DNA of 40,887 nucleotides from an uncultured Enterobacterales bacterium (GTDB lineage: Bacteria > Myxococcota_A > UBA796): assembly GCA_964554315.1 (NCBI GenBank), contig CAZKOI010000004.1, forward strand, positions 1-40,887. The letters are read 5' to 3'. Position 1 is the first letter of the stretch; each line of letters opens with the position of its first letter. This document shows positions 129 to 33,208 of the stretch, piece by piece. Made by a program: the position numbers and the translations under genes. The notes beneath the pieces are model-generated. The model was given only the letters and a program-made list of their open reading frames with translations. It did not search any database and was not told the origin of the DNA.

Positions 129-1388
129 CTAGAGGCTGTACATCATGTACTGGAGCGTGAGCACCACGTCCGCGTCGGCGTTGTTCGCCACGCGGAAGGA
201 CGAGAAGGCCACCTTGCCGTCGCCGGAGGCGAAGCTCACCAGCAGCGGCGAGTTGCCGAGGCTATAGACATTGGTACCCAGCCGATACTCGATCGGACCG
301 CTCATGTGAACGCTGACGGTGGGGTCGACTCCCTCAATGGGCGGCCAAACCGGCAGGTCAAACTCGACTTGGGTCGTGTCGGTCTCGAGCCAAGCCGCCA
401 AGGCTCCGTCCGACACCACGGCATTCACGATCCCGTTCTCGCCCAGCTGGGCCGCATCCGGGACTTCATCCGCCCCCACAAAGTCGATGGCCTCGGGCCA
501 GCCGCGCTCGACCACATCGTAGGCCCAGTCGCTGGCGTACACAGACCCACCCGCTGCCACGTAGTTGCGGAGGTTGTTGATGATCTCATCCGCCATGTCG
601 AGCGGCTCCTCGGGCACACCGCCGTCGGCATCCGCGTCGCCGTCGGTGCCTTCGTCCGCATCAGCCCCGCCATCCGCGTCCGCGTCCGCGTCCGCGTCGC
701 CGCTCATGCCCGTGTCGTCCTCTGCACCCTCATCGGCATCGGCGTCCTCATCCATGTCAAAGAGCGGCCCGCCATCCGCGTCCGCGTCTTCCTCCTCGTC
801 GGGGGGCCGGGGATAGACGATGCCCTCCTCGACATGGCCCCCGTTGAAGATGATGATGTCGAACTCCAGCATCTTGTCGAGGTCGCGGAGGAAGCCCGCC
901 ATCTCGTCGCCCACCTTGCCATCGACGAGCTCGTAGTTCGCAAAGCCCATGTGCTGAAGCACATCCTGGAAGTCGTCGTAGTCCCCGGTGATCACCGCCA
1001 CATCCAGCTCGAGCGGGTCGAAGCAGTCCGGCTCCTCGAGCACCACCTCCTCGCCGTCGTCCACCTCAACCTCGTGAGTCTCGAGGATGGCGTCACCGTA
1101 CTGCACGTACACGGTGTACGCCGAGCCAGCGGGCATTGGATCGAGGAGGAAGTAGCCATCCCGATCGGTGTAGGAGATGCGCGTGTCGTAGAGCTTCCCA
1201 GAGTCGTCCACGAGGTTGGCATAGACCATCGCGTCAGGCAGCCAGTGGCGCCCCGAGGGATCACAGACCCGCCCCAAGATGGTGCCCGGCGAGAGGCCGT
1301 CCTCGACCTCAGGGTCCTTGAAGAAGGTGTTCTCCGAGCAACTGTACAGTCCAGCAGCGAAGAGGCTCAGGGTGAGTGCGTGACGCAT
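129..1388 (-). CDS. Lipoprotein with carboxypeptidase-regulatory-like beta-sandwich domain, acidic Asp/Ala linker and GATase-like C-terminal domain
   Basis: Start moved to MRHALTLSLFAAGLYSC (lipobox-like); TDRDGYFLL motif; DADADAD low-complexity insert; GGSVYASDWAY motif. Confidence 0.7.
   Translation of the reverse strand: MRHALTLSLFAAGLYSCSENTFFKDPEVEDGLSPGTILGRVCDPSGRHWLPDAMVYANLVDDSGKLYDTRISYTDRDGYFLLDPMPAGSAYTVYVQYGDAILETHEVEVDDGEEVVLEEPDCFDPLELDVAVITGDYDDFQDVLQHMGFANYELVDGKVGDEMAGFLRDLDKMLEFDIIIFNGGHVEEGIVYPRPPDEEEDADADGGPLFDMDEDADADEGAEDDTGMSGDADADADADGGADADEGTDGDADADGGVPEEPLDMADEIINNLRNYVAAGGSVYASDWAYDVVERGWPEAIDFVGADEVPDAAQLGENGIVNAVVSDGALAAWLETDTTQVEFDLPVWPPIEGVDPTVSVHMSGPIEYRLGTNVYSLGNSPLLVSFASGDGKVAFSSFRVANNADADVVLTLQYMMYSL
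614..788. repeat. Coding hexamer repeats (GCGTCC/GCATCC)n encoding Asp-Ala runs
   Basis: gcatccgcgtccgcgtccgcgtccgcgtcg at ~670-699 plus related copies; protein GDADADADADGG, GDADADGG, DADADGG. Confidence 0.75.
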
Positions 1389-1464
1389 AGCGTGCTCCGT
1401 GGTGGCGGTAAATCTAGCGCTTTGCGCGCTACCGCGCACTTCCTAAATAAGGGGGATTGACCTC

Positions 1465-1499
1465 GTTGACGTTAGCCTCGGTCCCTACCGAGGGTCAAC
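1465..1499. other. Intergenic stem-loop downstream of moaC
   Basis: GTTGAC...CCTCGGT-ccct-ACCGAGG-GTCAAC inverted repeat; no clear U-tract. Confidence 0.4.
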
Positions 1500-1995: not shown

Positions 1996-3263
1996 GCGTC
2001 CCGCCAGAGGGGGCAGGTCAAGCATCGCGGGCCACCCCGGCCCCGGGAGAGCTCACTCCCGACCAAGTGAACAGCGATTCGCCGACCGCTGTCGAAGAGC
2101 GCATCAACATCGCCCTGAAAGTCCGCAGAGAGGGTCGCGAGGTAGCCGGCCGGGCTCATGACCTCAAAGCCCGCCTCGCCCATCGCAACCGCCGTGCGGT
2201 GGTTGCGGGCATAGCCCACCACCACGCCGGGTCCGAGCGCCACGTAGTTGGCCCCGTCTGTCCACTGCTCGCGCCGTCCGTGAATCGGATGACCGCCGCC
2301 GCACTGGACGGCCTCGATCGGGTGTCCCGCGGCGGCCAGCGCCTCGATCAAGTGAAGGTCGCCGTCATCAACCACCGTGCGGCCGCCCTCGAGGCTCAGG
2401 CTGAGGACCCTGGCTTCCTCCGAGCCTCCCGGCTCCAGCAGGGGCGTGTAGACCACCCCTGAGGTCCGGTCGGTGAGCGTGAACACCGTGTCGAGGTGCA
2501 TCGAGCTCCGCTGCTTGGGCATCTCCACCACAAGCACGCGCTCGAGCCCCTCGGAGAGCAGCTCCGTGGCCAGCTTGATGATCATGGCCCAGCTGGTTCG
2601 CTCCGAGGCCCCGATGCAAGCGAGCGCTTCGGATACCACGAGCACATCTCCGCCCTCAATGGTCAGCGGCGCCGAGCCTCCAGCCTCGTGAACTCGGGTG
2701 GAGCTCCTCGCGATCCGTGCGGACTCGAAGCGGGGATGGCCCTCAAACACACTCCATGCCAGCATGGTCTCGCGGCGCCGGGCCGGCTTGTTGGCATTGC
2801 CGACGACGATCGTCTCGCCCACCACTGCCGCCAGGTCGCGGGTGAAGATGAGGTTGGGGGCCGGCGCAAAAATCGGCTTTCCGCTTAGGCTTCCGCCGAT
2901 CGTGCCCACGACCATGGTGGCGGCCAAGGCTTCCGGGTCGAGCGCCGCCAGCTGCGCCACCTGCCGATCTCGGAGACGCTCCGCCTGCGCCACGTCCTCG
3001 ATGAGGGCCGAGCGGCTTTCGTCTTCGATGAGTGCTTCGCCCAACAAGGTCTGAAACGGCACCACCTCGGCTACGGAGGCGAGGACATCACAGAGCTGCT
3101 GGTGCTCATCGGAGGCGGCCCGCACGTCGACGAGGTCATCGAACAGCAGGTACTGGGGCGAGGCCGGATCAATGTGTTCAGGGAGCATACGCTCCATTGC
3201 AGGACCTGGGGGGTGGATCACCACGCTCCTCAGTCGGCCAACCTCGCTCACAACCTTGATCAT
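1992..3263 (-). CDS. arcA: Arginine deiminase family protein
   Basis: SEVGRLRSVVIHPPG, LLFDD, PNLIFTRD, IEGGDV, MHLDTVF, ELSRGRGGPRCLTCPLWRD; catalytic Asp/His/Cys intact. Confidence 0.88.
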   Translation of the reverse strand: MIKVVSEVGRLRSVVIHPPGPAMERMLPEHIDPASPQYLLFDDLVDVRAASDEHQQLCDVLASVAEVVPFQTLLGEALIEDESRSALIEDVAQAERLRDRQVAQLAALDPEALAATMVVGTIGGSLSGKPIFAPAPNLIFTRDLAAVVGETIVVGNANKPARRRETMLAWSVFEGHPRFESARIARSSTRVHEAGGSAPLTIEGGDVLVVSEALACIGASERTSWAMIIKLATELLSEGLERVLVVEMPKQRSSMHLDTVFTLTDRTSGVVYTPLLEPGGSEEARVLSLSLEGGRTVVDDGDLHLIEALAAAGHPIEAVQCGGGHPIHGRREQWTDGANYVALGPGVVVGYARNHRTAVAMGEAGFEVMSPAGYLATLSADFQGDVDALFDSGRRIAVHLVGSELSRGRGGPRCLTCPLWRDA

Positions 3264-3308: not shown

Positions 3309-4592
3309 ATGAAGAGATCCATCGCCAGCCTCTATCGTCGTGCATCGGCAGGGGAACTGCCCCTCTCGGATACGTGGTGGGCGCAGCGGGTGATGAATGT
3401 CATCCACCTGGCGGTGATCGTGACCCAGCAGACCGCCCAGGACCGGCTGCCGGTGCGTTCTGCGACGCTGGCCTATTGGACCGCCGTGGGTGCCGTCCCG
3501 CTGATGGTGCTCGCGTTTGCGCTCACCGGCGAGCTGGGGTTGACCGAGGTCACGGTGGAGGCGGTGCGCGGAATCCTGTACGACACGGTCCTCTCCGACG
3601 CCGTCGGCGATGAGATCTCGGCGGTGGTGGAGAACTTGCTCACCCGGGTGGACCTGAGCACGGTCGGGAGTGTCGGCGTCTTGGGCTTGATGGCCATCAC
3701 CAGCCAGATCTACTTTCAGGTCGAGCTGGCGGTGAACGACATCTTCTCAACCCGACTGCATCGGAGCTGGATCTGGCGCTTTGTTCTGTTCAACCTGTCG
3801 GTGCTGGTCGCTCCCGTCATCGTGGCGACGGGCATGGTCTTGAGCGCTCGACTGCCGGAGACGGCCAGCGCTGTCGGTGTGGTTCTTCCATGGCTGATGA
3901 CGTCTCTTGCCTTCGTGGTGGCCATCAAGTACCTGCCCAACACGCCCGTTAAGTGGCGCTCCGCCGTCATCGGCGGGCTGGTCTCGGCCGCCCTCTTCGA
4001 GGGCGCGAAGCGCGGCTTCACGCTCTACACCGACCTCCTCGGCACGCGAGATAGCATGGCGCGCCTCTATGGCTCGGTGGCCTTCCTGCCCGTGTTTCTC
4101 ATCTGGCTCAACTTTGTGTGGCTGGTCATCTTGATGGGGGTCGAGCTCTCGTACGTCATCGACAAGGGAAGCCAGCTGCTCGATGTCCAGCGCGAGCGCG
4201 CACTCGACCCTCACGCAGCCCGGCGCCACCCCGACGGACTCTTTGCTCTCGGCGTGCTCTTGGCGCTGTACGAGGCCGCAGATGAAGGGCCGGTGACCGT
4301 GTCCCGAGTGGCGGATGTGGCAGGCGTCCCCCGCCATCACACGCTCGCGGCGCTGGAAGTTCTAGAGGACGCCGGCGTCGTGCTTCTGGACGGCAGCACG
4401 CAGCGGTGGAGCCCGTCTCATGACGCGTCTCACATCACGGCAAGCGAGGTGCTTCGGGCTTGGCAGAGCCTGGCTGCCCCCAACTGGATCGGTGATTGCC
4501 TCGGCGGCCAGTTGGTGGCCAAGATGCAGCTTCGTCTTGAGTATTCCGCCAACACCAGCATGGAGGACCTGCGTCGCGAGGTCACCGCGTGA
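3309..4592 (+). CDS. YihY/BrkB family inner-membrane protein with C-terminal winged-helix-like extension
   Basis: SATLAYWT...VP, KYLPNTPVKW, LFEGAKRGF, LYGSVAFLPVFLIWL..W..IL.G.E motifs; C-terminal VSRVADVAGVP...LEVLEDAGVV; start placed at ATG 3309. Confidence 0.85.
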   Translation: MKRSIASLYRRASAGELPLSDTWWAQRVMNVIHLAVIVTQQTAQDRLPVRSATLAYWTAVGAVPLMVLAFALTGELGLTEVTVEAVRGILYDTVLSDAVGDEISAVVENLLTRVDLSTVGSVGVLGLMAITSQIYFQVELAVNDIFSTRLHRSWIWRFVLFNLSVLVAPVIVATGMVLSARLPETASAVGVVLPWLMTSLAFVVAIKYLPNTPVKWRSAVIGGLVSAALFEGAKRGFTLYTDLLGTRDSMARLYGSVAFLPVFLIWLNFVWLVILMGVELSYVIDKGSQLLDVQRERALDPHAARRHPDGLFALGVLLALYEAADEGPVTVSRVADVAGVPRHHTLAALEVLEDAGVVLLDGSTQRWSPSHDASHITASEVLRAWQSLAAPNWIGDCLGGQLVAKMQLRLEYSANTSMEDLRREVTA

Positions 4593-16873: not shown

Positions 16874-16977
16874 CCTAAACTCCATTTGGGACACGGGTTC
16901 CTGTTCGGGAAGCAAATTTCCCTCTGCGAGTTCAGCCCTTGTCGGATATGGCAAACATCACCACCCGGAGCGAGGCT

Positions 16978-18141
16978 ATGAGCGACGACAAAGTGCTCTT
17001 CGAGATCACCGAACAACACCTCAATACAGGCCTTAGGCGATTCCCGGTCGGCCATGTCCGAACCAGCCGGGTCGACCCCGAGCAGGGTGTCTCCTATGTG
17101 GGCTATCCCATTGCTGATCTTGCCTCCCTTGACCCTGAAGCCGCCATCTACCTCCTGTACAACAAGGAGCTTCCCAGTGATGCCGAGCTTGCGGCGTTCA
17201 AGGCGGACATCGCCTCCCGTGCCGCCGTCGACCCCGCCGTCATCAACGTCCTCAAGAGCCTCCCGAAGGATGGCCACCCAATGGAGTGGCTCATTAACGG
17301 CCTGACCCTGCTCGGCATGACGGGAAAGACGGGGGACTTCTACCAAGATGGCCTCAACCTCGTCGCTCGGTCTGCAGAGCTGATCGCCAACATCTTCCGC
17401 ATTCGTTCGGGGTGGGGTGAGCCCATCCCCTCCGACCCGAGCCTTGGCCTCGTCGAGAACTTCGTTCACATGCTGGGTGTTCCCGGCGCCGACAACGATA
17501 AGCTCACTACGCTCTTGCGCACCTTCTACGTGCTTCACATGGACCACGGCGGCGGCAACCTCTCGACCTTCACGGGCAAAGCCGTCGCTTCCGGCCACGC
17601 GGACCAGTTCTCGAGCCTTGCCGCAGCGATGGCGGGGCTGTACGGACCACTCCATGGCCGCGCTAACCAAGAGTGCCTCAACTTCGTGAAGACCGTCGGC
17701 ACCACCGACCCCGACGAGATCGAGCAGTTTGTTCGCGACACCCTGGCCAGCGGCGGCAAGATTTTCGGATTCGGACACGCGGTGCTGCGGGCAGAGGATC
17801 CCCGCGCGACAGTGCAGTACGGACTGGGCCGAGAACTCTGCCCCGACGATCCTCTGTTCAAGACCGCGCTCGCCATGCGCGAGCGTGCGGTAAAGGTGCT
17901 GAAAGAGAACCCCAAGATCTCTAACCCTTACCCCAACGTCGACGCCGTCTCCGGTACGCTCTTGAACGCGAGCGGTTTGACCAACGCCGAGTACTACACC
18001 CTGCTGTTTGGCTTCGCCCGAATCGCGGGCATCACCGCCCAGATCGTGGACGAGCGCGTCCACATGCGTAATGGGCGAGGCGTACCGATCTATCGCTGCT
18101 CTTACGTCGCGGAGAACCAAGCTCCCCGCCGACTTCGCTGA
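16978..18141 (+). CDS. gltA: Citrate synthase, eukaryote-like type
   Basis: HMDHGGGNLS, GLYGPLHGRANQE, IFGFGHAVLRAEDPR, NPYPNVDAVSG; start placed at ATG 16978. Confidence 0.9.
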   Translation: MSDDKVLFEITEQHLNTGLRRFPVGHVRTSRVDPEQGVSYVGYPIADLASLDPEAAIYLLYNKELPSDAELAAFKADIASRAAVDPAVINVLKSLPKDGHPMEWLINGLTLLGMTGKTGDFYQDGLNLVARSAELIANIFRIRSGWGEPIPSDPSLGLVENFVHMLGVPGADNDKLTTLLRTFYVLHMDHGGGNLSTFTGKAVASGHADQFSSLAAAMAGLYGPLHGRANQECLNFVKTVGTTDPDEIEQFVRDTLASGGKIFGFGHAVLRAEDPRATVQYGLGRELCPDDPLFKTALAMRERAVKVLKENPKISNPYPNVDAVSGTLLNASGLTNAEYYTLLFGFARIAGITAQIVDERVHMRNGRGVPIYRCSYVAENQAPRRLR

Positions 18142-18177
18142 GCTCCTCTCCAACCACCCGAAACTCCGAGGACAGCC

Positions 18178-19416
<1,239 letters not shown>

Positions 19417-19419
19417 ACC

Positions 19420-20295
19420 ATGGCGGTACTCGTTGACAACAACACCCGACTGATCTGCCAGGGAATCACTGGCGGTGCAGGGTCTTTTCACTGCGGCCAG
19501 ATGCTGGACTACGGCACCAACCTCGTCGGAGGCGTCACCCCCGGCAAGGGCGGTCAGTTCTTCAACGGCAGCGTCCCCATCTTCAACACCGTCGAAGATG
19601 CTCGGGCGGCCACCGATGCGAACGCGTCGGTGATTTTTGTCCCGCCTCCCTTTGCGGCCGACGCAATCTGCGAGGCCGTCGATGCCGGGATTCGGTTGAT
19701 CATCGTGATCACCGAGGGCATCCCCGCGAACGATATGGCTCGAGCTTGGGCCTACATGAAGGGTAGAGACGTTCGCATGATCGGTCCAAACTGCCCCGGA
19801 ATCATTACGCCTGGGCAGTGCAAGATTGGCATCATGCCCGGGCACATTCACACCCCCGGCCGGATTGGTGTTGTGAGTCGTTCCGGCACCCTGACCTACG
19901 AAGCGGTGGGGCAACTCTCGGCCGTCGGCCTTGGCCAGTCCACCTGCATTGGCATCGGCGGCGACCCCATCATCGGCACCAACCACACCGATGCGCTCAA
20001 GCTCTTCAATGACGATCCGGACACCGATGCCGTGATCATGATCGGGGAAATCGGCGGCTCAGCTGAGGAAGAGGCGTGCGCGTGGGCCAAGGACAACATG
20101 AAGAAGCCGGTGGTCGGCTTCATCGCGGGAGCCACGGCCCCTCCTGGGCGCCGCATGGGTCACGCCGGGGCCATCATCTCAGGCGGACAAGGGACCGCAG
20201 AGGCGAAGTTTCAGGCAATGGAAGCCGCTGGAATCCACGTCGTTCGCAGCCCCTCCGAGATGGGCTTGAAGATGAAGGAAGTCCTCGGACTGTAG
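19420..20295 (+). CDS. sucD: Succinyl-CoA synthetase alpha subunit
   Basis: [45 protein letters not shown] (phospho-His). Confidence 0.97.
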
Positions 20296-20312
20296 AACTT
20301 TTCCATAGGCTA

Positions 20313-20355
20313 ACCAATAAAAACCCCCCGACGATTCGGGGGGTTTTTATTTGGT
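20313..20355 (+). terminator. Bidirectional-type intrinsic terminator after sucD
   Basis: AATAAAAACCCCCCG-ACGATT-CGGGGGGTTTTTATT. Confidence 0.92.
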
Positions 20356-20397
20356 TTTCGGCTTTTTTGTGAGGTTTTGTTAATGTGTTTTCAATAT
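20354..20397. promoter_or_regulatory. Candidate CarH/LitR-type operator (11-bp phased direct repeats) next to a TTGACA box at 20404-20409
   Basis: GTTTTCGGCTT / TTTTGTGAGGT / TTTGTTAATGT / GTTTTCAATAT; the third unit's reverse complement ACATTAACA matches AnnTnnACA. Confidence 0.4.
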
Positions 20398-20457
20398 TGA
20401 GGGTTGACACAGCAATGTTTTGCGAGCATTTTCCCGGCGTCAACCACGAGGTGACCT

Positions 20458-20667
20458 ATGGAAACCATCACGAACCCCGTCCTCATTGATGCCGCCTTGA
20501 CCATCATCATGGCGCTTGCTCTCATTGGCGGCACCGCCGCCGCGCTGTGGCTGCTGCCCTGGAGCGACCAAGCCATACGGTCCGTGGACAAGAGCTTGAA
20601 TCCGGTCGACCTGACGGAGGAGGTTCCCCTCCCGCGTCTAGCCGTTCCTCGCTCCCAGCTGGGGTAG
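20458..20667 (+). CDS. Small single-pass membrane protein (69 aa)
   Basis: GAGGTG SD, ATG, one strongly hydrophobic helix ending LWLLPW; 3' end overlaps the convergent regulator gene by 30 nt. Confidence 0.7.
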   Translation: METITNPVLIDAALTIIMALALIGGTAAALWLLPWSDQAIRSVDKSLNPVDLTEEVPLPRLAVPRSQLG

Positions 20668-21549
20668 CCGATCCGCAAGGAAGGCCGAGAAGTCCTCCAG
20701 CGACCGGAACGTGTGAGAGCCCTCAATACCCTCGGCGCCCTCACCCCCGAGCCATATCTCGACCCCACGAGGCAAGAGACCCCGAAGCTCCGCTACCGTC
20801 TTCTCATTGTCATCGGTCGATGAGAAGGCCGACATCGAGAGGCACACGGCTGACGCTCCCACCCAAGTCGAGGCCGCTGAGACGGCGGAGGGTGGCGAGT
20901 CTGCCCCGATAAAGACGACCCGATATCCGCCCAACACAAGGCAACACGCCACGAGATGGAGACCCAGCGCGTGACTCTCTCCGACTGGCGTGGCACATAC
21001 GACAGCGGGGCCCTTGGCCTCGGCGTTGAAGACTCGCCACTCAGAGGCGAGAAAGTCGCGGAGCACCTCGGACGCAAAGTGCTCGTGTTCAATCTCAATC
21101 TCACCGGAAGCCCACCACTGACCGAGTTCCGACAGGAGCTCGCCCGCCCGTGAGTGCACGAAGCTACGGAGCCCTGACTCCGCAACCTCGGATCGGAAGC
21201 TCCGAAAGAGGCCATCCGCGTCAAACTCTCGGGTGCAGCGCAGAAACTCTTCCGTGCCTGACCTCACTCGCGAGCCCCGCATCGGCACGACCGGGCCGGG
21301 AGGCGGAAGCAGGGCCTCCAGCTGGACCTTGGTCATCTCAAGCACCTGGGCTGGGCGATGCCCAAGCCGGATGGCGCGGGAGACCAAGGTTAGAAACTCC
21401 ACGACCTCCTGGCCGTATACGCGGTGACCGCCGTCGGTTCTCTCCGGCTTTGGGTACCCGTAGCGCCGTTCCCAGTTTCTGAGCGTACCCTCCGACAAGC
21501 CCACCGCCTTAGCGACGGCTCCGATGCTCATCAGTGGTCCAGTGGTCAT
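20638..21549 (-). CDS. MerR-family cobalamin-binding transcriptional regulator (CarH/LitR-like photoreceptor)
   Basis: HTH SIGAVAKAVGL..TLRNWERRYG and wing RTDGGHRVY; W-x9-EH (WASGEIEIEHEH); ExHxxG (GESHALG); Rossmann tail; CAGGA SD before ATG 21549. Confidence 0.88.
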   Translation of the reverse strand: MTTGPLMSIGAVAKAVGLSEGTLRNWERRYGYPKPERTDGGHRVYGQEVVEFLTLVSRAIRLGHRPAQVLEMTKVQLEALLPPPGPVVPMRGSRVRSGTEEFLRCTREFDADGLFRSFRSEVAESGLRSFVHSRAGELLSELGQWWASGEIEIEHEHFASEVLRDFLASEWRVFNAEAKGPAVVCATPVGESHALGLHLVACCLVLGGYRVVFIGADSPPSAVSAASTWVGASAVCLSMSAFSSTDDNEKTVAELRGLLPRGVEIWLGGEGAEGIEGSHTFRSLEDFSAFLADRLPQLGARNG

Positions 21550-21582
21550 GTTATCCTGCCTGCTCGAGAAGGTGTTTCGGTA

Positions 21583-21588
21583 ATTATA
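21583..21588 (-). promoter_or_regulatory. Candidate -10 box (TATAAT) of the CarH-like gene
   Basis: Perfect TATAAT on the minus strand ~34 nt before the ATG, in an AT-rich divergent intergenic region. Confidence 0.5.
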
Positions 21589-21644
21589 TAGCATTTGATT
21601 ACTTTTTACGACACCGAAAACCGTATTTGCCGCAAGCCTAGAAC

Positions 21645-21666
21645 TTTGATAAACTTTTGAACATGT
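21645..21666. promoter_or_regulatory. Candidate CarH-type operator: two tandem 11-bp repeats over the TonB receptor start
   Basis: TTTGATAAACT / TTTGAACATGT, resembling TTTGTTAATGT at 20376. Confidence 0.45.
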
Positions 21667-24299
21667 TTGTGGCGCTAGTGATGTGCGGCATCGCCGTTGC
21701 CGACCCCGTCGTAGACTCCCCTCCCGGAGCCGACTCCGGTCCGTCTTCGGAGACACCAGCAGAAGACATCGAGGCCACGCCCGAGCCGGACGCTCGAGAG
21801 GATGCCTCACCCCAAGCCGCCATGACCGGTCCAGTGCCGATCTTCACCCCACCCCCCGTGTACCCCCCCGATGCTCTGGCGGCAGGCGCCGGGGGAAGCG
21901 TCCTCCTCTCTCTCGAGATTGACGAGGAGGGGGCCGTCATCGCCGTCGAAGTCCTGGACGCCGATCGCCAGGACTTCGCCGCCGCCGCCGCACTCAATGC
22001 ACGCTCATTCCGCTTCTCTCCGGCCACACTCACGGATGGGTCGTCAGTGGCGGTCACCATTCAGTATCGCACGGTGTTCGAAGCAGAGAAGGCAGCGCCA
22101 ATCTCGGTGGAAGGCTTCGTTCGCGAGGCGGGCCCTCGAATCCCGCTTCGCGGTGCTTCTGTCATGGCCCTCAGTGCCGAAGGGGAGCGCGTCCTCACAG
22201 AGACAGACGATGCTGGAGGCTTCAAGATGGCCGGCCTCGACCCGGGTCCCTGGACCGCTCGTGTCTCGGCACCGGGCCATGTAACCGATACCTTCGAGTT
22301 CACCGTCGAGCCCGGCCAGGTCGCATCGGTCAAGGCATTTCTGGTCCGGGACGAGGTCCGTACAGGCCAAGTGGCCGACCAAGAAATCGTGATCGTCGCG
22401 GTCGCACCGGAGACCGAGGTTACCGAGCGAAGACTGACCCGGGAGGAGGTCCGGTACCTACCCGGAACAGGTGGGGACGTCGTGAAGGTGGTCCAGAACC
22501 TTCCGGGGGTAGCCCGGTCTCCCTTCGGTACCGGCAACCTTCGCATTCGAGGAACAGCCCCAGAGGACTCCCTGTACTATCTCGACGGCGGACGCATCCC
22601 CATCGTGTTCCACTTCGCAGGACTCACCACGGTTCTGGCATCGGACTTCCTCGAAGAAGTGGCCTACCTCCCGGGAAGCTACACCGTGCGGTACGGGCGT
22701 GCCCTCGGTGGCCTCGTCGACCTTCGAACCGAGCGACGCCTCCCCGAGCGTTCGAGTGGCTACGCATCGGTGGATGTCTTTCAGGCCTCTCTCTATGTGC
22801 AGCAGGTGATCGGTAACCGAGATGCTGTGACCGTCTCGGCTCGCCGCTCTTACGCCGATGCCGTCCTCAACCCCATCCTCAACAAGGGAGACCTCACGGT
22901 CCAAGCCCCTCGCTATTATGATGTGCAGGCTCGCTGGTCGCGCAAGCTCGACAGCGGATGGACCGACCTCCTCCTTTTTGTGTCTGACGACCGATTTCGC
23001 TTCTTGGGGCAGGGTGAAGACGAGGTGGTCCTAGCCGGCTACGCCACGCAGTTTCAGAAGGCACGGTGGTTGACCAACTGGGACCTCGGGTCCGGCCGCA
23101 GCCTCGAGGTCTCCGTCGTCATGGGTCCGGAGAAGAAGTTCTTCGAGAATGATGGAAGCAGCCAAGCCTACGAGCGCGAGGCTCGGATCTCCACTCGCCT
23201 CGAGTACAAGCAAGAAGAGACCCAGACACGCGATATCGGGTGGCTGGTCGGCACGGACCCCAACTTCAACCGCACGTCGTTTCTCTATGACATCGCCGGC
23301 CCCCCTGAGCGGGCCGTGTCAACCAACCGCTGGGCACCGAAGGAAGAGGGCGCAGAGAACATCTGGCAGCCGAGCATCTACGGCGAGGTCTCCGCACGCC
23401 TGGGCGCCTTTAAGCTCCTCCCTGGTCTGCGGGCCGACGCCCAAATCACCGATGCCGCTACGGTGGTCAGCGTCGATCCCCGCCTGAGGACCGTGTGGGA
23501 GGTCAGTGATCGCACCACGCTCAAGGCCGGCGGGGGTCTGCACACACAGGCACCGACCTCAAGGCAGCTCAGCCCAAGCTCAGACGGCAACCCCGACCTC
23601 GCTGCCGAGAAGGCCTATCAATACAGCCTCGGCGTCAAGCAGGTGATCAACCCCTGGCTGGATGTCGACCTGACCGGCTTCTACCACCACCTGACGGACC
23701 TTATATCGGGACGCGAGGACCGCTTCTTTTTCTACTCCGGACCTCCTCCTGTGGGCCCCTACGACACCGACCCGTACGCCAACGATGGGACGGGGCGAAC
23801 CTTCGGCGTGGAGTTTTTAGCCAACGTGAAGACGGAGACTACCAACGGCTTTCTCTCGGCAACGTGGAGCCACTCCGACCGCGTCAAGCGACCGGGGGGT
23901 GAGCGAACCCTGTTTCCCTACGACCAGCCCCTCGTCGTCAACGCCCTTGTGTCGCAGAAGCTGCCTAAGCGGTGGCGCATTGGTGCCCGAGTCCGGTACG
24001 GATCCGGGAACCCCTACACGCCCGTCGAGAATCGCATCTTCAACCACGACCGACGGGAGTTCATTCCCGTCTATGGCGAGCGAGACAGCGGACGTCTGCC
24101 TCCGTTCTTCTCCCTCGATATTCGCATCGACAAAGACTACGTCTTCAAGAAGTGGACCTTGACCACCTACCTCGACCTCCAGAACGCCACCTACGCGAAG
24201 AATGTGGAGAATCTGGGTTATTCGTACGACTACCGGGAGGAGGAGCCCACCTTGAGCTCTCCTCCCCTACCGGCCTTCGGGCTGCGGGGTGAATGGTGA
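21663..24299 (+). CDS. TonB-dependent receptor with N-terminal TonB_C-like and carboxypeptidase-regulatory-like domains
   Basis: Signal peptide; PVYPPDA..AG..GSV.L.L.IDEEG.V (TonB C-domain); TDDAGGF; plug LPGTGGDVVKVVQNLPGV..IRG, RYGRALGG; barrel ending GLRGEW; start at 21663 or 21657. Confidence 0.9.
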   Translation: MFVALVMCGIAVADPVVDSPPGADSGPSSETPAEDIEATPEPDAREDASPQAAMTGPVPIFTPPPVYPPDALAAGAGGSVLLSLEIDEEGAVIAVEVLDADRQDFAAAAALNARSFRFSPATLTDGSSVAVTIQYRTVFEAEKAAPISVEGFVREAGPRIPLRGASVMALSAEGERVLTETDDAGGFKMAGLDPGPWTARVSAPGHVTDTFEFTVEPGQVASVKAFLVRDEVRTGQVADQEIVIVAVAPETEVTERRLTREEVRYLPGTGGDVVKVVQNLPGVARSPFGTGNLRIRGTAPEDSLYYLDGGRIPIVFHFAGLTTVLASDFLEEVAYLPGSYTVRYGRALGGLVDLRTERRLPERSSGYASVDVFQASLYVQQVIGNRDAVTVSARRSYADAVLNPILNKGDLTVQAPRYYDVQARWSRKLDSGWTDLLLFVSDDRFRFLGQGEDEVVLAGYATQFQKARWLTNWDLGSGRSLEVSVVMGPEKKFFENDGSSQAYEREARISTRLEYKQEETQTRDIGWLVGTDPNFNRTSFLYDIAGPPERAVSTNRWAPKEEGAENIWQPSIYGEVSARLGAFKLLPGLRADAQITDAATVVSVDPRLRTVWEVSDRTTLKAGGGLHTQAPTSRQLSPSSDGNPDLAAEKAYQYSLGVKQVINPWLDVDLTGFYHHLTDLISGREDRFFFYSGPPPVGPYDTDPYANDGTGRTFGVEFLANVKTETTNGFLSATWSHSDRVKRPGGERTLFPYDQPLVVNALVSQKLPKRWRIGARVRYGSGNPYTPVENRIFNHDRREFIPVYGERDSGRLPPFFSLDIRIDKDYVFKKWTLTTYLDLQNATYAKNVENLGYSYDYREEEPTLSSPPLPAFGLRGEW

Positions 24300-25123
24300 G
24301 GTTTTGCCTGATGCTGGTGATGGTGGGGTGCGGTGAGACCTCTCCCGAGACACTGATTGATGAGCTTCGGGTGATCGCCAGTGTCGCTGAGCCGCCCGAG
24401 GTTCAGCCTGGAGCGACCTTTGACTTCACCTCCTACGTCGCCAACCCGGATGACCGGGTCGGGGCGATGGCGACCTGGGTCTGCACCAACCTCGGCGAGG
24501 GATGCATCGAGGCGGCAGGTGGCACGGTGAGCCTGGCATCGGCGGCGCTGGAAGGAGAAGCCCAGGTGTGGACCCGGACCTTGGACCTGGCCTCCGCTCT
24601 CGCTCCCGTGGTCGCGGAGGGACCCGTCACCGCGACCCAGGTCTGGACGATGGCCTGTCGGCAGGACACCTGCCCCGTGCTCGATGCGATCGCGTCTCTC
24701 TCTCCCACCGATCCGTGGCCCGAAGAACTCCGCAACGATCTCGCCAACCCCACGACCTGGATGGCGGACCTCCCGATGGCCGACGTTAGCCTGGCCTACC
24801 AATTGCTCACCGCTTCATTCTCCGACGAGCCTCACCAAAATCCGACGCTCACACCTGCCGCCGACATGCCCACGTCGCTCACCAGGGACCAGACCTTCTC
24901 CTTGCCCTTCACGGTCGATGGAGACTTTGCTGAGCAGGCCCAGGTATACGGATCCATCACCGGCGGTGGCTTCAAGATGCCGAGCACGTACGTGGAGGCG
25001 GGTGACACCATCACCCTCGAAGGCACCGCACCAAAAGATGCCGAAGAAGCTCGGATATGGGTCACACTGGTCGATGGCCAGGGCGGGGTCGCGGTGTGGA
25101 CCGAGTCGCTTCCCGTCGAGTGA
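24293..25123 (+). CDS. Lipoprotein partner of the TonB-dependent receptor
   Basis: Lipobox MVGC; LIDELRVIASVAEPPEV and DGQGGVAVW motifs; overlaps the receptor stop. Confidence 0.8.
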   Translation: MVRFCLMLVMVGCGETSPETLIDELRVIASVAEPPEVQPGATFDFTSYVANPDDRVGAMATWVCTNLGEGCIEAAGGTVSLASAALEGEAQVWTRTLDLASALAPVVAEGPVTATQVWTMACRQDTCPVLDAIASLSPTDPWPEELRNDLANPTTWMADLPMADVSLAYQLLTASFSDEPHQNPTLTPAADMPTSLTRDQTFSLPFTVDGDFAEQAQVYGSITGGGFKMPSTYVEAGDTITLEGTAPKDAEEARIWVTLVDGQGGVAVWTESLPVE

Positions 25124-25208
25124 GCCCCCAAACACCCCGCTCTTTGGCGTTACATCTGCTCGGTTATCGGTTAGCGATTCCCACCCACGAGAACCTCGGA
25201 GCAACCGC

Positions 25209-25892
25209 ATGAGCTGGATCAGCCGATTCCTGCGTTCAACCCTTGGGCAGAAGTTCGTGATGGCCTTGTCGGGCCTCATGCTGATCGGCTTTGTGGTCGC
25301 TCACATGCTCGGCAACCTCCAGGCCTTCCTCGGACGCGACGCCCTCAACGACTACGCCGCCCTGCTGCAGGGCAACCAGGGGCTGCTCTGGGTCGCCCGC
25401 ATCGGCCTCATCGGTGCCGTGGGCGCCCACATCTGGAGCGCCTTCAAGCTCACCATGGCCTCAAAGGCCGCGCGACCGGTCAGCTACAAGAAGCGGTCCT
25501 GGTTTGATGAGCGCTACGCCGTTCGGACCATGCGCGTGGGCGGTGTCATCCTGCTGGCGTTCATCGTCTACCACCTGCTGCATCTCACGCTCGGCACGGT
25601 CCACGGGAGCTACAAGCCCTGTGCGGACGTCGGGGGCGTGTTCACCTGCTTCGCCTACGACAACCTGGTGAGTGGACTGAAGCATCCTCTCATCGGCGGC
25701 TTCTACGTGGTGGCCCAGCTCTTCCTTGGGCTCCACATCACCCACGGCTTCTGGTCGATGACCCGCACCCTCGGTCAGGGCAATCCACGCTTTGACAAGC
25801 CCGCTCGGACGATCGCCAGCGCCCTAGGTGTCATCATCACAATCGGCAACTGCTCGATTCCTGTGGCCATCATGGCCGGCATCTTGAGTTGA
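25209..25892 (+). CDS. sdhC: Succinate dehydrogenase cytochrome b558 subunit
   Basis: [20 protein letters not shown], haem-ligand His residues, HITHGFWS; GGAG SD before ATG 25209. Confidence 0.92.
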
Positions 25893-25902
25893 GGGAACGC
25901 AC

Positions 25903-27845
<1,943 letters not shown>

Positions 27846-27849
<4 letters not shown>

Positions 27850-28598
27850 ACCTCAAACTACATGTTTGGCGCCAAAATGGTGCGTCGGAAAAGGGTCACT
27901 TCGAGACCTACGAGGCCACCGATGTTCTCGAGGACATGTCCTTCCTCGAGATGCTCGACGTGGTCAACGACAAGCTCGAAGCCGAGGGCCGGGAGCCCAT
28001 CGCGTTTGAGTCCGACTGTCGAGAAGGCATCTGTGGTGCTTGCGGCTGCATGATCAATGGCCAGCCCCACGGTCACAAGGACAGGACGACGACGTGCCAG
28101 CTGCACATGCGGGAGTTCAACGACGGCGACGAGATCGTCATCGAGCCCTTCCGCGCGAAGGCCTTTCCTGTCATCAAGGACTTGGTCGTCGACCGATCGG
28201 CCTTTGACCGAATCGTGCAGGCGGGTGGCTTCATCACCGCGCGAACGGGGTCGGCACCCGACGCCAACGCCAATCCTGTGGCCAAGGTGGACGCCGACCG
28301 AGCCTTCGATGCGGCCACCTGCATCGGCTGTGGGGCCTGTGTTGCTTCTTGCCCGAACGCTGCCGCCATGCTGTTCACGGGCGCGAAGGTGACCCACTTG
28401 GGCCTCTTGCCTCAGGGCCAGCCCGAGCGCTTCATTCGGGTGGATAAGATGGTCAACCAGATGGACTCCGAGGACTTCGGACACTGCAGCAACTTCGGTG
28501 AGTGCACCCTGGCCTGTCCAAAGTCGATCAGCTTGGACGTCATCTCGCAGATGAATTCCGACTACCTCAAGGCACAGTTCAAGTCTCGCGAGGGCTAA
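27846..28598 (+). CDS. sdhB: Succinate dehydrogenase iron-sulfur subunit
   Basis: [45 protein letters not shown]; ATGA overlap with sdhA. Confidence 0.96.
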
Positions 28599-32862: not shown

Positions 32863-32886
32863 GAAAAAGAGGCCCCAGGTGATGGC

Positions 32887-32887
<1 letters not shown>
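32863..32887 (-). terminator. Possible weak terminator/processing hairpin between ffs and dnaX
   Basis: Minus strand GGCC-ATCACCTGG-GGCC followed by TCTTTTTC. Confidence 0.4.
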
Positions 32888-32973
<86 letters not shown>

Positions 32974-33006
32974 ACCACCACCTTGGGCCGCGCACAATGG
33001 CGCAAA

Positions 33007-33094
33007 TGGCGGAGAGAGTGGGATTCGAACCCACGGTAGGTTGCCCTACACTCGCGTTCCAGGCGAGCACCTTCGTCCACTCGGTCATCTCTCC
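33007..33094 (-). tRNA. tRNA-Ser(GGA)
   Basis: GGAGAGA acceptor, anticodon arm CTCGC-CTGGAAC-GCGAG, long variable arm, GTTCGAATC, encoded GCCA. Confidence 0.96.
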
Positions 33095-33120
33095 ATATAA
33101 AAACTTTGGACGTCATGAAG

Positions 33121-33208
<88 letters not shown>

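Follow-up and report, generated by a model that had tools for sequence, protein, structure and literature searches.

A CarH-family regulator gene (carH) was found between the tricarboxylic acid (TCA) cycle genes sucD and sdhC in a 40,887 bp stretch of DNA (the window) on contig CAZKOI010000004.1 from an uncultured bacterium of the Myxococcota_A. It is divergent from an operon encoding a TonB-dependent receptor and a lipoprotein, and the 113 bp gap between the divergent genes (21550-21662) contains two pairs of tandem 11 bp repeats. CarH is proposed to repress both its own gene and the receptor-lipoprotein operon through these repeats, which would give a light-induced, B12-dependent output. We put the probability of this reading at about 0.6. 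CarH would thereby probably switch the receptor on in the light. The window belongs to a genome of 4.2 Mb that is 95.9% complete (G000). G001-G005 are genomes of the same genus, of which G003 is 72% and G004 80% complete, and g5 and g6 are other genera.

A preliminary description of the window had placed a MerR-type B12-binding regulator with CarH hallmarks between sucD and sdhC, and all three of the motifs on which it relied are present. The open reading frame (ORF) at 20638-21549 on the minus strand encodes LRNWERRYGYP (RxWERRY), W146-x9-E156-H157 and G-E191-S-H193-A-L-G196 (ExHxxG). W-x9-E-H is the adenosyl-capping motif of the class I CarH/LitR proteins and H193 occupies the place of the lower axial histidine in their E/DxHxxG motif. 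The MerR-type winged helix-turn-helix (HTH) of this class was predicted at residues 7-69 (Pfam MerR_1, 6.2e-11; MerR, 2.2e-10), and its four-helix bundle and Rossmann B12-binding module are also present. Residues 1-277 could be aligned to CarH of Thermus thermophilus (chains 3WHP/5C8D, E 6e-28), and the alignment matched both W-x9-EH and the histidine of ExHxxG. W146, E156, H157, E191, H193 and G196 are invariant across ten aligned family homologues. By its sequence the regulator is an ordinary member of the CarH/LitR family, and its gene is the sole full-length CarH-type gene found in its own genome. A search of genome contigs with the regulator returned three same-genus loci, one distant match and nothing further. 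One salt-marsh metatranscriptome run gave three low-depth contigs, 95-99% alike, over 20540-21550 (carH and the end of the neighboring small ORF). Although they come from an RNA library, these contigs do not establish transcription and show neither starts or ends, strand nor level, and the lack of contigs over the receptor is uninformative.

Published CarH operators consist of tandem 11 bp nnnnTnnACAn repeats over the -35 or -10, and binding persists where only one or two of the repeats are full and the others degenerate (PMC9304148). The carH/receptor gap holds two pairs of tandem repeats at 11 bp spacing with the core TTGAAYA, compared to TnnACA in the CarH repeat. Full TnnACA is present in only one repeat of the two pairs, TTGAACATGTT. 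Where CarH/LitR operators have nnnnTnnACAn over a promoter element, the gap has two TGAAYA-core pairs over putative promoter positions. Pair 2 corresponds to the two 11-mers noted previously at 21645-21666, moved by 1 nt, and pair 1 is an additional pair absent from that description.

The repeats were scored with a matrix trained only on 15 carH-promoter sites of g5, and sites of the own genome were left out as circular. Pairs 11 bp apart were scanned over 8.4 M positions of the own genome. Pair 1 scored 20.2 (genome rank 4) and pair 2 scored 16.2 (genome rank 9). Four pairs in the genome scored at least 20, whereas the reversed matrix gave none and 20 column-permuted matrices gave 0.15 on average. 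Nine scored at least 16, compared to three for the reversed matrix and a mean of 1.8 for the permuted ones. The score observed in the carH/receptor gap was equalled by 0 of 2000 shuffles in G000, 6 in G002, 15 in G001 and 44 in G005. Upstream of the G003 receptor, where the pair score was 26.1, 0 of 2000 shuffles were as good. The exact pattern TTGAWNANNNNTTGAWNA had six matches in G000, one of which was pair 2, and 14 across the five same-genus genomes compared to one for the reversed control. Among these matches were sites between carH and the receptor in G005 and G002, and upstream of the DCC1-like gene in G005, G002 and G001. The element of pair 2 is also present at the receptor start in G005, G002 and G001, and the repeats are conserved at orthologous loci in four same-genus genomes. 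Support for the receptor-side repeats as a putative operator is good.

Candidate promoters were read from the sequence of the gap. A perfect TATAAT lies within pair 1, 34 nt before the carH ATG, and carH has an AGGA ribosome site. On the receptor side TTGCCG (21627-21632) and TAAACT (21650-21655) are 17 nt apart. TAAACT is overlapped by pair 2, and 7 nt separate it from the receptor ATG (21663). No Shine-Dalgarno sequence precedes this ATG. This arrangement suggests a leaderless receptor transcript starting at about the ATG. A consensus promoter scan of the gap called none, so these promoter assignments are putative.

Judged by the behavior of the family, the regulator would bind adenosylcobalamin in the dark, oligomerize and occupy the tandem 11 bp repeats. 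In the light the Co-C bond would be broken and the regulator released. Pair 1, over the TATAAT of the carH promoter, would serve autoregulation. Pair 2 spans the receptor start codon and the likely -10 of the receptor-lipoprotein operon, and CarH bound there would repress that operon in the dark. The local output would be light-induced, B12-dependent expression of the receptor and the lipoprotein, and the regulon would be small, also taking in a DCC1-like oxidoreductase/SDR operon. We infer the dependence on B12 and light, the identity of the repeat-binding protein and the promoter positions.

The order citZ-sucC-sucD-small ORF-carH-receptor-lipoprotein-sdhCAB is the same in G000, G005 and G002. 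Identity of G005 and G002 to the window was 88-94% for the TCA proteins, 52-54% for the regulator, about 66% for the receptor and 49-52% for the lipoprotein. In G001 carH faces the receptor on a 4.6 kb contig beside an OPT-family transporter, and the remaining part of the receptor and the lipoprotein are on a second contig. The TCA cluster of G001 is contiguous as sucD-small ORF-sdhC-sdhA with the carH module elsewhere. The receptor and lipoprotein appear to be the best local targets because they are kept with carH in G001 outside the TCA cluster. By gene order, carH, the receptor and the lipoprotein form what looks to be one unit within the genus. The synteny expected in relatives held for these three genes (G005, G002 and G001) and failed for the small ORF, which stays at sucD. 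In G003 the order is sucD-small ORF-receptor-lipoprotein-sdhC, and the gap of about 400 bp between the small ORF and the receptor lacks carH; no MerR-type carH was found in this genome at its 72% completeness. No carH, lipoprotein or DCC1-like homologue was found in G004 at 80% completeness, and the 820 bp before its sdhC match no query. The receptor-lipoprotein pair was present in 14 of the 16 family genomes according to the lipoprotein profile. Wider-family receptors lie away from suc/sdh and from carH. Eight carH loci from seven genomes of other genera had different neighbors each time, none of which was a crt gene or a receptor.

Both gaps flanking carH are AT-rich, as had been described, with GC dips to 0.46-0.47 at 20200-20499 and 0.48 at 21500-21699 compared to 0.565-0.705 in the rest of 18000-28000. 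All five 11-mers quoted from these gaps were recovered at their exact positions. Their proposed role as operators was supported for the pair at 21645-21666 and not for the three at 20365-20397. Three classical CarH repeats had their sole window match at 20367-20397 with 3 mismatches, and at least one match occurred in 12 of 100 shuffled windows, so this match was rejected as evidence. With the g5 matrix this sucD-side region was equalled by 250 of 2000 shuffles in G000, 1249 in G005, 142 in G002 and 438 in G003. A stretch like 20365-20397 is retained in G003 and G001, which have no carH next to it.

The three 11-mers lie upstream of the candidate promoter of the small ORF, which encodes a 69-aa single-pass membrane protein. 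The ORF is preceded by a GAGGTG ribosome site. Copies that are 44-57% identical follow sucD in G005, G002, G003 and G001, and TTGACA/TTTACA-N17-CATCTT is kept in the same four genomes. The promoter is present in all five ORF-bearing genomes whether carH is adjacent or not, and the consensus promoter scan did not call it at 20404-20432. No Pfam or NCBIfam family was found for the protein. In G001 the small ORF is directly before sdhC, 110 nt apart (L112 2540-2728), and it may be a partner of the succinate dehydrogenase operon. Since G001 and G003 keep the ORF and its promoter with no carH beside them, the ORF, the promoter and the sucD-side repeats appear to belong to the sucD/sdhC neighborhood and not to the carH module. 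The carH module appears to have been inserted between the small ORF and sdhC. The small membrane protein was therefore dropped from the local targets proposed earlier, and the receptor and lipoprotein, which are linked with carH in G001, were retained. The 3' ends of the small ORF and carH overlap tail to tail by 30 nt. With this overlap and no terminator, a small-ORF transcript would run antisense into carH in the window.

The positions of these features are listed in Table 1. The receptor and lipoprotein genes share 7 nt, where the stop of the former meets the ATG of the latter. The 85 nt gap between the lipoprotein gene and sdhC showed no terminator-like site, and a -10-like GTTAYA before sdhC is common to G000, G005 and G002. 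Read-through from the lipoprotein gene into sdhCAB is speculative. Elsewhere in the window two tRNA genes and a small signal recognition particle (SRP) RNA were located at 32881-33208 on the minus strand.

Table 1. Features around carH in the window, and loci of the second regulator in two same-genus genomes
Feature	Position	Strand	Remark
citZ	16939-18141		
sucC	18178-19416		
sucD	19420-20295		
Intrinsic terminator after sucD	20316-20351	+	16-pair stem, T run; end of sucCD unit
Three 11-mers noted previously	20365-20397	.	AT-rich, upstream of small-ORF promoter
Candidate sigma-70-type promoter, TTGACA-17 nt-CATTTT	20404-20432	+	Small ORF; read from sequence
Small ORF, 69-aa single-pass membrane protein	20458-20667	+	
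CarH-family regulator (carH), 303 aa	20638-21549	-	
TATAAT, perfect, candidate carH -10	21583-21588	-	Inside pair 1; read from sequence
Repeat pair 1, TTATATAGCAT TTGATTACTTT	21584-21605	+	Proposed carH autoregulatory operator
Candidate receptor promoter, TTGCCG-17 nt-TAAACT	21627-21655	+	Read from sequence
Repeat pair 2, TTGATAAACTT TTGAACATGTT	21646-21667	+	Proposed operator over receptor -10 and start codon
TonB-dependent receptor	21663-24299	+	
Lipoprotein, 276 aa	24293-25123	+	
Gap before sdhC, 85 nt	25124-25208	+	Without terminator-like site
sdhCAB	25209-28598		sdhC 25209-25892
Second regulator, L119 (G003:C139)	668-1477	-	
Second regulator, L127 (G005:C272)	2229-3023	+	

Pfam domains of the receptor were, from the N-terminus, TonB_C and CarboxypepD_reg followed by the plug and barrel. 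The TonB C-terminal domain, at residues 65-142, is fused ahead of CarboxypepD_reg and the plug, and the beginning of the NCBIfam model of the myxochelin receptor MxcH also matches this N-terminal stretch. Receptor identity was 59-72% in same-genus genomes and 41-49% across the family, and the lipoprotein gene always came directly after it. No match to the PDB sequences was found at E 1e-5. The BtuB-type models (TIGR01779/NF007926) gave a weak partial match of 43 bits against a cut-off of 599.7. At the G001 receptor start (L025 about 3680-3700) a 16/19 match to the classical Fur-box consensus lies over the start codon and hints at iron control there. The Fur-box match was equalled by 0 of 2000 shuffles in G001, 1813 in G000, 488 in G005 and 1482 in G003.

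The lipoprotein has an invariant Cys13 and is mostly beta strand (DSSP). Its AlphaFold2 model had a pLDDT of 92.8 and matched generic beta-sandwiches only (TM 0.21-0.33). It belongs to no known family; 51 homologue clusters carried no functional name and the Atlas matches were Myxococcota hypothetical proteins. A metagenome scan with the lipoprotein alignment returned seven loci, all on short contigs. Only one of these may reach the gap between carH and the receptor; at 98% identity to the window it added no depth for footprinting.

The preliminary description noted a module without carotenoid genes. No crt cluster was found in the own genome, and the best match to a crtI-type desaturase was 48.5 bits against a cut-off of 238.1. 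The single SQS_PSY (squalene/phytoene-synthase-like) gene is flanked by genes for an inositol monophosphatase-family protein and an MFS transporter. Control of carotenoid genes is typical of CarH without defining it, and was not found here. Two cobalamin riboswitches were predicted, at C290:3330-3505 (111.5 bits) and C18:19389-19566 (111.8 bits), and none was found within the window. The former precedes another TonB-dependent receptor and a 376-aa protein without a family. Downstream of the latter are a 328-aa protein without a family and two M16 peptidases. The genome also encodes a ribonucleotide reductase of the B12-dependent class II. Together the riboswitches and this reductase indicate that the organism uses B12. 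The C290 receptor and the window receptor have a common stretch of 124 residues at 26% identity. As the riboswitch-controlled receptor lies elsewhere, import of B12 by the window receptor, and with it the earlier suggestion of B12-gated uptake, is unsupported.

Other high-scoring sites in the own genome outline the candidate regulon. Ranks 1 and 2 with the g5 matrix are on C458, in the gap separating the gene of a cytochrome-c-domain lipoprotein from a 109-aa ORF and a Ser/Thr kinase. The top site of the genome is at C458:1630-1675 (L091), where four tandem repeats of about 11 bp, TTGAATATGTT TTGTATAGGC TTGAATAGGTT TTGAATATTGG, lie on the minus strand. The 109-aa protein had no homologue in the five same-genus genomes, and an 18-mer is identical in G005 C336 and G002 C186, at a locus different from that of C458. 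Rank 3 is at C263:4146-4178 (L089), where three phased repeats directly precede the operon of a DCC1-like thiol-disulfide oxidoreductase and an SDR; two unknown genes and an NmrA-like gene are divergent from this operon. In four of the five genomes having the DCC1-like gene, its start codon is preceded by the repeats at a distance of about 10-20 nt, with orthologue sites in G005, G002 and G001. The gap between hemH and the epimerase-DUF1731 gene (C476) scored 14.0 in G000, was not conserved by eye in G003, G001 and G004, and was dropped from the regulon. The region upstream of the epimerase in G005 and G002 resembles the end of another coding region and not the hemH start. At C453:305-335 (L090) tandem TCAATAGGTTT TCAATAGGCG, one base off the core, lie about 360 nt upstream of the class II ribonucleotide reductase and could be an NrdR-type site or a B12-regulator site. 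CTGAAyATATGTTCAGT-type palindromes at C39:4642 and C569:1092 resemble the LexA box described for myxobacteria.

The motif was also present at carH in other genera. In g5 carH is divergent from a sigma-factor gene in 4/4 genomes, and in the flank that was scanned (L033, G009) a photolyase-like gene comes next. The tandem TTGAATAGTAT TTGAATAGnnn occurs in all four carH-sigma factor gaps, three of them complete in the extracted gap, and in L032 the second copy extends into the next ORF. The g5 gaps also contain TTGAACAGTAT in 2/4, inverted copies in 4/4 and further TGAAYAG copies. Weaker pairs are present upstream of carH in G006 (15 of 1000 shuffles) and G027 (20 of 1000), with a marginal one in G007 (80 of 1000). 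None was found upstream of carH in G023 or in both copies of G018. The g5 receptor-lipoprotein pair is divergent from a photolyase-related (DPRP) gene (L083 1816-3498/3593-6130; L085 5955-7637/7732-10269). No significant motif was found in the 95 nt gap between these, and the adjacency is an unexplained coincidence.

A second B12-binding regulator was found in the genus. It keeps W-x9-EH and DxHxxG and has a different N-terminal HTH, excisionase-like by eye. It is present in G005, G002, G003 and G001, and the G000 copy (C596:1551-1901) is cut by the contig end. The gene is divergent from a 157-aa gene, which in G003 is followed by a photolyase gene (by eye). None of the other genera searched had the second regulator; in g5 the search gave only cross-hits on its own carH and short N-terminal HTH-only matches.

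A number of observations weigh against CarH as the repressor acting on the window repeats. The B12-binding domain of the regulator (PF02310; 6.4e-6, 26.4 bits) is under the Pfam gathering cut-off of 32.1, and B12-binding_2 (PF02607; 1.4e-4) scored 22.4 against a gathering cut-off of 23. With NCBIfam NF052513, 'HTH-type transcriptional repressor CarH', the protein scored 126 bits (E 1.7e-36) and missed the equivalog cut-off of 400. It is on this score a family relative of the seed proteins and not their equivalog. There are only two clear repeats per site, and the carH-proximal site is in plus orientation in G000 and minus in G005 and G001. In the score zone of pair 2 the control matrices also yield 2-5 genome matches. 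No TTGAAYA motif was seen by eye at the photolyase-related gene of the own genome (C354). The motif was not significant upstream of the g5/g6 receptors, with 494-1675 of 2000 shuffles as good in four regions and 45 of 2000 in G010. The link of motif and receptor therefore appears to be genus-specific. In G003 the receptor keeps its strong upstream pair despite no MerR-type carH being found, and the divergent promoter of the second regulator carries tandem TTGAACACGTT TTGAACATTTT (TTGAACA repeats).

The G003 findings raise the question of which protein binds the motif. The TTGAAYA repeats could be operators of the second regulator, or be shared by both proteins, leaving the window CarH redundant or with a narrower role. 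Its spread over the genus and the repeats in its G003 promoter suit this explanation, as does the sharing of one operator by CarA and CarH of Myxococcus, documented in PMC9304148. In G003 a protein other than CarH may bind the motif, and both paralogues may share operators by analogy with Myxococcus. However, G003 is only partly complete, and the window repeats lie in the promoter region of carH itself, the usual autoregulatory position. The motif was assigned to the MerR-type protein because the g5 carH promoter has it and g5 is without the second regulator. Control by the second regulator is possible and on balance doubtful. A circuit that reads B12 status is improbable. Here the apo-repressor would be off the DNA, the receptor would import a corrinoid or tetrapyrrole, and light would merely destroy the ligand. 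CarH-type proteins require adenosylcobalamin for DNA binding, as stated in PMC9304148; the target is an uptake receptor, and this receptor has the partial TonB-B12 match given above. Against this, the receptor behind the C290 riboswitch is the better candidate for a B12 importer and the two receptors have little in common. The lipoprotein model gave no hint of a ligand and the window has no riboswitch.

The receptor could also be a bystander, with the repeats being AT-rich promoter sequence or chance and CarH acting on distant genes only. The consensus scan found no promoter in the gap, making the promoter assignments guesses, and the neighbors of carH differ in every other genus examined. The Fur-box match in G001 hints at another form of control there. 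However, that match is not significant in G000, G005 and G003, and the ranks of 4 and 9 were obtained with an independent matrix and stand against the control matrices and shuffles. The element at the receptor start is kept in four genomes and the three genes move together in G001. This explanation is considered quite improbable. It is very improbable that both AT-rich regions are CarH operators and that the small membrane protein is also a target. In its favor, three classical repeats match nowhere in the window but at 20367-20397, and TTGACA at 20404 fits TnnACA. The mismatches, the shuffled windows and the lack of significance with the family matrix in G000, G005, G002 and G003 argue against it, as does the persistence of the small ORF and its promoter without an adjacent carH.

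The proposed repression by CarH of its own gene and of the receptor-lipoprotein operon was compared with known systems. The window regulator resembles Thermus thermophilus CarH/LitR (PDB 3WHP, 5C8A, 5C8D-F) in domain order and full-length alignment. Divergent genes and tandem 11 bp repeats over promoter elements, putative ones in the window, are further likenesses; the Thermus architecture is as described in PMC9304148. The myxobacterial CarH/CarA proteins (Myxococcus, Cystobacter, Sorangium, Haliangium) are of the same phylum; among them even operators made up of few full repeats and otherwise degenerate copies are bound, and two paralogues can share an operator (PMC9304148). Thermus differs in having three TnnACA repeats and crtB as target, whereas the window has two TTGAAYA pairs, a TonB-dependent receptor and lipoprotein as putative target and no crtI-type gene found. 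The myxobacterial genes are in or near crt clusters, and the second regulator described here has another DNA-binding domain. Among Proteobacteria, CarH/LitR-type regulators ('PhrR', class II LitR) have regulons without carotenoid genes that include photolyase, cyclopropane-fatty-acid synthase and folate genes. These resemble the present case in that non-carotenoid photo-stress genes are involved; carH of g5 (G009) and the second regulator of G003 are near photolyase or photolyase-like genes. We know of no TonB-dependent receptor in the PhrR/class II LitR regulons, and no literature linking CarH/LitR to such a receptor was found, judged by titles and abstracts.

CarH is the model B12 photoreceptor and an optogenetic tool, and most of its known natural outputs are carotenoid genes. 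A receptor-lipoprotein target in a genome without a recognizable carotenoid pathway would be unusual. The operator variant, TTGAAYA at 11 bp spacing, and the short candidate regulon could be tested with a single purified protein. For the sucD-side repeats and the small protein, the proximity to carH appears to be a coincidence of neighborhood, which advises caution with regulons read from adjacency alone. A wider scenario is tentative and on balance improbable. In this apparently carotenoid-free marine/salt-marsh genus CarH might have been rewired from pigment synthesis to TonB-dependent import across the outer membrane, through the receptor with its fused TonB-C domain and a dedicated lipoprotein. 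Light and B12 status would then control the uptake of a nutrient or cofactor, which might be a photolabile tetrapyrrole, and two B12 photoreceptor paralogues with different DNA-binding domains would share a TTGAAYA code. If CarH does control the receptor and lipoprotein, B12-based light sensing would be widened towards light-timed import rather than photoprotection.

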